A stretch of 64,000 nucleotides of DNA from Escherichia coli (GTDB taxonomy: Bacteria > Pseudomonadota > Gammaproteobacteria > Enterobacterales > Enterobacteriaceae), in the NCBI RefSeq assembly GCF_044324785.1, contig NZ_CP172129.1; one strand, written 5' to 3'. The position numbers and the translations under genes are program-made. This document shows positions 56,262-56,894 of this stretch, in pieces; within the stretch, counting starts at the first letter, position 1; each line of letters opens with the position of its first letter. The notes beneath the pieces were generated by a model. The model saw nothing but the letters and a program-made list of their open reading frames with translations. It did no database searches and was not told where the DNA came from.

Positions 56262-56894
56262 ATGGCAGTTCGTGGCATTAACAAGGTCATTCTCGTAGGA
56301 CGCCTGGGAAAAGATCCGGAAGTCCGTTACATCCCCAACGGGGGCGCAGTGGCAAACCTGCAGGTGGCCACATCAGAAAGCTGGCGTGACAAACAGACGG
56401 GGGAGATGCGGGAGCAGACAGAATGGCATCGTGTGGTGCTGTTCGGCAAGCTCGCGGAAGTGGCAGGTGAATATCTGCGCAAGGGCGCGCAGGTCTACAT
56501 CGAAGGTCAGCTTCGCACCCGTAGCTGGGAGGATAACGGTATCACCCGTTACGTCACCGAAATTCTTGTTAAGACCACGGGCACCATGCAGATGCTGGGA
56601 CGTGTCGCAGGTGCTCAGACTCAGCCGGAAGAGGGGCAACAGTTCAGCGGTCAGTCTCAGCCGGAACCACAGGCGGAGGCCGGTACGAAAAAAGGAGGCG
56701 CAAAAACGAAAGGCCGTGGACGTAAGGCCACGCAGCCGGAGTCGCAGCCGCAACCGCCGGAGAGTGACGATTACGGGTTTTCAGATGATACCCGTTCTGA
56801 ACGACTGACTGTGACAACCGCTCCGTCCTGTGCGGGGCATCACCGGAGAGATGAGGATGAGCGAATATTTCAGAATACTTCAGGGGCTGCCTGA
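56262..56894 (+). CDS. ssb: Plasmid single-stranded DNA-binding protein SSB with an aberrant C-terminal extension
   Basis: OB-fold N-terminus [23 protein letters not shown]...; ends ...[14 protein letters not shown]... instead of an acidic DD-I-P-F tail. Confidence 0.85.

Follow-up and report, generated by a model that had tools for sequence, protein, structure and literature searches.

[quoted passage not shown] A secondary SSB without this acidic tip is known from Bacillus subtilis, where the tail-less competence protein SsbB is expressed when foreign ssDNA enters. In E. coli, SSB lacking the C-terminal Phe (SSBΔF) or the last 8 residues (SSBΔC8) no longer binds its partners, which is lethal when the chromosomal ssb is affected, and replacement of the tip Pro by Ser in ssb-113 (P176S) renders the gene temperature-sensitive (PMC10164576). 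As regards plasmid genes, deletion of the F ssb leaves the efficiency of conjugation unchanged and merely delays the first plasmid duplications (PMC9849209), and deletion of ssb in pED208 increases the mating-induced SOS response (PMC8406263).

The plasmid ssb described here has the same leading-region position, OB fold and linker as the gene for the F-plasmid SSB (SsbF, NF010292/PRK13732), and the two are about 94% identical in DNA (mean column identity of alignment A1, with F included). The C-terminus of F SSB and of the remaining family members is DDIPF; in the protein encoded at our locus, I-P-F is gone and 34 residues are added. In this loss of the terminal Pro-Phe it resembles SSBΔF, SSBΔC8 and ssb-113, and by analogy with these mutants its product would be expected to bind ssDNA without recruiting partners. 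It differs from them in being a natural allele of a dispensable plasmid paralogue, whereas the laboratory mutations affect an essential chromosomal gene, and in adding a foreign tail, whereas the laboratory tip mutants include a clean truncation. It also differs from SsbB, whose short native C-terminus is conserved and whose expression is regulated, in that it arose recently by frameshift from a gene with a tip and shows no sign of selection.

The gene lies in a stretch of 64,000 nucleotides of an E. coli contig (NZ_CP172129.1), which was analysed as a whole and is called the window below. The features of the ssb ORF and its surroundings are the following:

56262..56894, + strand, frameshifted plasmid ssb ORF, 210 aa (176 ancestral residues and a 34-residue out-of-frame tail)
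56277..56585, + strand, intact OB-fold ssDNA-binding domain (Pfam PF00436, E=5e-37)
56790..56791, + strand, site of the 1-bp (T) deletion, ancestral GATGATATCCCG to GATGATACCCG (alignment A1 column 530, alignment A3, list of differences from p170Kb)
56790..56891, + strand, new 34-codon tail, made of the former ssb 3' end, the intergenic spacer and the start of the next gene
56798..56800, + strand, ancestral ssb stop TGA, now out of frame (translation with the T restored; homologues stop at the aligned position)
56822, + strand, single-nucleotide polymorphism, T in GCTCCG (alignment A3 column 635: T in the window, L007 and L008, C in three intact sequences)
56857..57090, + strand, downstream DUF905 gene, equivalent to yfjA of F (ORF list and RefSeq annotation in identical plasmids)
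56031..56261, + strand, upstream small ORF, 68 aa in relatives, here fused in frame to ssb through loss of its stop
55700..56125, - strand, Frpo2-type ssDNA promoter region upstream of ssb (DNA fold of -116.9 kcal/mol, z=-5.6)

The ssb ORF starts with the ATG at 56262, preceded by AGGAG, and stops at the TGA of 56892-56894, as given by the ORF list and the translation. The Pfam match covers residues 6-108 of the SSB, which are residues 83-185 of the 287-aa ORF resulting from the upstream fusion, and no frameshift, gap or stop is present in the OB-fold region relative to the intact homologues of alignment A1. The NCBIfam model NF010292, a single-stranded DNA-binding protein subfamily which we take to be the plasmid SSB group, matches with 372.8 bits (cut-off 265) and is covered from position 1 to 174 of its 175 positions. 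A disordered Gly/Pro/Gln-rich linker is also present, with residues ~115-170 aligning with the linkers of the F and pTBU0218 SSBs; the length of this linker differs between plasmids, with in-frame deletions in a pO157-type plasmid and in the protein P0008. What is absent is the acidic tip D-D-(D)-I-P-F with its free carboxylate. The window gene is thus confirmed as a bacterial SSB by both its OB fold and its subfamily profile, minus the partner-docking tip.

The loss of the tip can be traced to a single nucleotide. Positions 56784-56800 of the window read GAT GAT ACC CGT TCT GA, where GAT GAT ACC (56784-56792) are codons 175-177 of ssb, and the C-terminus continues as …SDD-TRSERL…, ending with …SGAA. 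The first-pass annotation, which had pointed out this read-through beyond the expected tip, estimated it at about 40 codons; it amounts to 34 codons and a stop. Its proposal that one inserted T would encode D-D-I-P-F-stop agrees with our in silico translation, in which an extra T after 56790 results in GAT GAT ATC CCG TTC TGA. In alignment A1 we compared the window with four homologues from complete E. coli genomes, namely pTBU0218_10-1CC_1, p504237_142, F integrated in a W3110 derivative, and a pO157-type plasmid. Each of these has GA(T/C)GATATCCCGTTCTGA at the deletion column, the T being absent only from the window, and p170Kb is a fifth intact relative with the T at the aligned column. Accordingly, the window has GATGATA-CCCGTTCTGA where 5/5 relatives have GATGATATCCCGTTCTGA (…DDIPF-stop). 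The presence of the T at the aligned column in five homologues indicates that the match to DDIPF reflects homology and not chance. The alignment with plasmid ssb genes, which had been suggested as a check, therefore bears out a real frameshift altering the interaction tail: all other family members end in DDIPF, and the window has one T fewer than every intact homologue. Profile searches of the tail with Pfam and NCBIfam gave no match past SSB residue 178.

The same allele is widespread. At least 40 PLSDB plasmids, each sequenced independently, match the window at 100% identity over the 638 nt of 56263-56900. They come from E. coli (of human, poultry, dog, cattle and lake water origin) and Salmonella enterica (from chicken), and among them are NC_011747 (pECOS88), NC_018954, NC_018966 and the plasmid of ATCC 11775, the E. 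coli type strain. A 70-nt query across the junction retrieved 124 records with at least 99% identity from 5,426 complete E. coli genomes, and in the sampled rows outside those 124 the match spans 71 nt, in keeping with an extra T, with the exception of one partial match. At the protein level, exact copies of the 210-aa product are recorded on no fewer than 1000 public contigs; Salmonella Kentucky and a MULTISPECIES entry for Gammaproteobacteria are among the source names. Such identity across independent assemblies excludes a sequencing error, which the first-pass annotation had offered as the other option. It had also held that homologous plasmid SSBs sharing the extended C-terminus would speak against its interpretation; such proteins do exist, as just described, but they represent the same allele, identical by descent and with linked polymorphisms, so that they refute the error and not the frameshift. 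Among the carriers, the entry NZ_AP043893.1, listed as JCM 20135 with the source 'feces from diphtheria convalescent', has the same ssb allele on a 131,333-bp plasmid that is equal in length to the plasmid of the ATCC 11775 type strain, which may point to a strain-identity or metadata issue.

The ssb region belongs to the leading region of a well-known type of plasmid. Positions 44000-64000 of the window are 100% identical to many E. coli plasmids of 130-155 kb. Of the plasmids with an identical ssb region, pPSUO78_1 is typed as IncFIB/IncFIC and conjugative, and pECOS88 belongs to the ColV-Ia virulence plasmids, carrying iuc/iutA, sit, iro, iss, ets, cva, ompT and the full tra region. The allele sits, therefore, on an IncFIB/IncFIC ColV-type virulence plasmid of the pECOS88/pS88 and Salmonella Kentucky ColV family. 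The gene order is Frpo-type promoter, small ORF, ssb, DUF905, ParB-like gene, psiB and psiA, and further downstream of ssb the following are found:

59164-59601, psiB
59598-60317, psiA
60423-60595, sok antitoxin RNA, downstream of psiA (Rfam, 92.7 bits)

The sok RNA is part of a leading-region hok/sok (flm-type) post-segregational killing locus. With the Frpo-type promoter, the strand transcribed toward oriT, and psiB/psiA, the setting of ssb fits the 'zygotically induced' leading-region set, organised as reported in PMC9849209. No second ssb was detected in the window by tblastn, nor is one annotated anywhere in pECOS88. In pECOS88 (L010-L011; 40108-44652, 45138-45924, 67962-70788) ISEc12 interrupts the ParB-like gene, and both psiA and traG carry a frameshift flag; the window, in contrast, has an intact ParB-like gene, psiB and psiA, so that decay of the leading region differs among plasmids sharing the ssb allele.

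Two further 1-bp deletions were identified upstream of ssb. In the first of these, a run of five G is reduced to four at 56229-56232, which removes the stop of the 68-aa ORF and creates an ORF of 287 aa from 56031 to 56894 (alignment A2); the small ORF itself has no family match in Pfam or NCBIfam. The five G are kept in five relatives and in a paralogous copy of the repeat within the window, and the run of four is found in 127 complete E. coli records. The other deletion is the loss of a C after 55825 (GGTCGCGCCGCC), within the structured region of 55700-56125, and it is likewise present in 127 complete E. coli records, the C at 55825/55826 being present in five relatives and in the paralogous repeat of the window. 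By its position this structured region is a candidate counterpart of Frpo2, the single-strand promoter of F given in PMC9849209. The Frpo-type repeat occurs twice in the window, at 55700-56260 and at about 61080-61650, with 92% identity between the copies and a small ORF after each; the first copy precedes ssb, and the second, which keeps the ancestral C and the run of five G, precedes a 95-aa ORF (61653-61940) and a DUF932 gene. All three 1-bp gaps relative to p170Kb are deletions in the window lineage, each base being kept in the five relatives, and the nearly equal numbers of complete E. coli records (127 for the C, 127 for the G and 124 for the T) indicate that the three deletions travel together; three complete records have both upstream deletions but lack an exact match to the tip deletion. 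Three 1-bp deletions against eight substitutions, within about 1 kb of one unit, look post hoc like decay. Inside the Frpo hairpin there is also an antisense ORF (55542-55961, minus strand, 139 aa), annotated as 'hypothetical protein' in identical plasmids; since relatives have it at other lengths or with a frameshift, it is unlikely to be a real gene.

In order to trace the origin of the allele we compared it with other sequences sharing the tail. The same …DDTRSERL end was found by protein search on two other ssb backbones, P0004 and P0005, whose DNA corresponds to L008 and L007, respectively. Both share polymorphisms of the window downstream of the deletion, such as the T at 56822 (alignment A3), and their haplotypes switch upstream only, at a distance from the deletion of no more than about 60 nt (L008) or about 20 nt (L007). 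The T at 56822 is present in all three sequences with the deletion and, among the intact sequences examined, in p170Kb only. A query with the T restored and the same flanks has an exact match in one complete E. coli record, which is again p170Kb, from an O7:H15 ST70 strain, and a comparison over 53800-57780 shows 8 substitutions and the three 1-bp gaps between it and the window. From these comparisons we infer that p170Kb offers the best available picture of the ancestral haplotype. The 3' polymorphisms shared by different ssb backbones imply that recombination moved one original allele, rather than that the mutation was repeated, and the allele probably arose once. A mutational hotspot at GATATC was considered, and the shared downstream polymorphisms with an upstream-only switch read better as recombination. 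A general, recurrent loss of the tip in plasmid SSBs was considered as well, the protein search having yielded many frameshifted forms, but these are mostly low-count sequences or short fragments, which are possibly assembly errors. Inside the ParB-like gene (57154-59112), at about 57780, the divergence from p170Kb (L009) rises sharply: 8 polymorphisms in the 4 kb before this point are followed by about 120 differences within 2 kb, indicating a recombination breakpoint in the gene.

Several other explanations of the missing tip have to be weighed. That the T is simply missing from one record by a sequencing or assembly error, with the true plasmid encoding …DDIPF, would be suggested by the fact that a one-base change restores a perfect conserved motif, as expected of an error in a single record; yet the sequence recurs in the at least 40 plasmids, which come from many laboratories, hosts and years, as well as in the 124 complete E. 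coli replicons and at least 1000 contigs, the site of the deletion is not a homopolymer, and the allele has its own linked polymorphisms, so we give this explanation practically no weight. Nor do we see any real chance that a functional tip is regained through recoding, for instance by a programmed shift of the ribosome to the -1 frame after D176. It is true that the -1 frame past GAT GAT reads TAC CCG TTC TGA, and that the resulting Y-P-F-stop resembles IPF-stop, but there is no slippery X XXY YYZ heptamer at 56784-56792 (A GAT GAT A), tRNA-Asp cannot re-pair on UGA, and no homopolymer is present that would allow transcriptional slippage. The YPF-stop is rather a leftover of the ancestral frame, the homologues having a plain in-frame DDIPF-stop with no conserved slippery motif, and recoding to …DDYPF-stop was rejected. 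Very improbable, although less clearly so, is that the main effect of the deletion is exerted on DUF905. The extended ssb ORF crosses the 56-nt spacer that separates the two genes in intact relatives, and covers the DUF905 ribosome-binding site and the first 38 nt of the gene (ATG at 56857), so that ribosomes passing over the ribosome-binding site and start, and stopping 35 nt inside the gene, might change its translation, by occlusion or by unfolding of the spacer. However, the DUF905 coding sequence and Shine-Dalgarno are unchanged, and such an effect would be a side-effect of the ssb deletion and not an alternative origin for it.

A selected function of the altered protein deserves more attention, though we consider it unlikely, taking its two forms together. 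Like tail-less competence SSB paralogues, a tip-less SSB expressed transiently from the entering strand might coat and shield it without recruiting host nucleases, helicases or RecA loaders (Exo I, RecQ and RecO), which would reduce degradation and the loading of RecA, or it might escape a host defence that senses SSB, thereby aiding the spread of ColV plasmids in E. coli and Salmonella. Phage SSBs trigger the Retron-Eco8 and Hachiman defences (bioRxiv 10.1101/2022.08.27.505566), plasmid SSB contributes to the suppression of SOS (PMC8406263), and the allele itself combines a fully intact OB fold with abundance in two genera and transfer by recombination onto other ssb backbones. On the other hand, the deletion is apparently a single event, with no convergent loss of the tip at comparable frequency, and the two additional 1-bp deletions in the module, in the ssDNA promoter region and in the upstream ORF fused to ssb, look like decay. 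The new tail is nothing more than the spacer and the beginning of the next gene translated out of frame, and the abundance, beyond which nothing speaks for a selected function, is accounted for by the success of the ColV backbone. That the OB fold has no secondary lesions is uninformative here, since decay is not to be expected in so young and almost clonal a lineage, and the listed carriers, being 100% identical, yield no dN/dS signal on relaxed selection. The commonness of the allele and its recombination onto other backbones are compatible with neutrality, and also with a benefit.

In our view, the most probable explanation, with a probability of roughly 0.8 as a whole, is that this is a genuine inherited deletion of one T that abolishes the hub function of the plasmid SSB, is tolerated through redundancy, arose once, and was then moved by recombination. 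The deletion converts …DDIPF-COOH into …DD followed by 34 unrelated residues, keeping the OB fold and linker and destroying the acidic tip. If made and stable, the predicted product should retain the ability to form tetramers and to coat ssDNA, and may co-assemble with the SSB of the host, as suggested by general SSB biology. Since the terminal Pro-Phe and the free carboxylate are required, no docking of SSB-interacting proteins is expected, and with its hub activity lost the gene would be a pseudogene-like loss-of-function allele. Its persistence could be explained by the redundancy of the plasmid ssb with the chromosomal gene and by its dispensability for conjugation, and its frequency by hitch-hiking, from a single origin, on a highly successful plasmid backbone, with occasional homologous recombination onto other ssb backbones.

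Observations on related plasmids bear on this explanation. The Salmonella plasmid pCVM29188_146 was moved by laboratory conjugation into Salmonella and E. coli, and its reported differences from pCS0010A (NC_018954) are only at listed sites outside ssb (PMC3008734); pCS0010A is a 100% match to the ssb region of the window. Loss of the tip is thus tolerated, since conjugation does not require the plasmid ssb and transconjugants are obtained with Salmonella ColV plasmids of the carrier group; as neither the window nor the pECOS88 annotation contains another ssb, the host gene suffices. The identical allele in E. coli and Salmonella implies natural transfer after the deletion arose. The higher SOS response observed with the pED208 ssb deletion indicates that loss of a plasmid SSB is not necessarily cost-free, and by analogy a weaker suppression of mating-induced SOS is a possible cost of the present allele.

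The public annotation of the allele is inconsistent. In RefSeq, the pECOS88 copy, which is identical in sequence, is entered as a pseudogene of ssb ('incomplete; missing C-terminus'), whereas GenBank CP012113 has the full 633-nt CDS annotated as a normal SSB. Because the ORF remains open for 210 codons and three residues are lost, several GenBank records call it a normal SSB, and in both respects, an open ORF and the loss of only the last three residues, it is unlike ordinary pseudogenes among those that RefSeq PGAP annotates on plasmids. As a pseudogene, it shows an inherited disruption of the frame relative to intact orthologues, in the form of a 1-bp deletion found in 124 complete replicons and flagged by RefSeq. 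The allele is already known as a RefSeq pseudogene, and it is widespread, located in a dispensable plasmid gene, and real but ordinary. The present analysis settles that this is a true allele, despite the conflict between the RefSeq pseudogene and the normal-SSB labels of GenBank and "MULTISPECIES" entries. Literature searches retrieved no paper on this ssb allele; the 'ssb' of the ColV study PMC4723317 is ssbL, an unrelated DAHP synthase gene.

Beyond annotation, the allele amounts to a natural experiment, in which globally successful conjugative virulence plasmids, found in Salmonella Kentucky as well as in E. coli isolated from poultry and from extraintestinal infections of humans, have spread with an SSB that lacks the partner-docking tip. 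Such a spread fits the published dispensability of plasmid ssb for transfer, and the allele would be of greater interest only if the tip-less protein has a selected role. A separate observation concerns the small ORF that follows the Frpo-type region, to which RefSeq gives the label 'single-stranded DNA-binding protein, frameshifted' in other plasmids and in the second copy of the repeat (L004, 788-993; L005, 776-981; pECOS88, 46963-47168, L010); this label is probably an annotation artefact, seeded by proteins in which the small ORF is fused to ssb, such as that of the present lineage.
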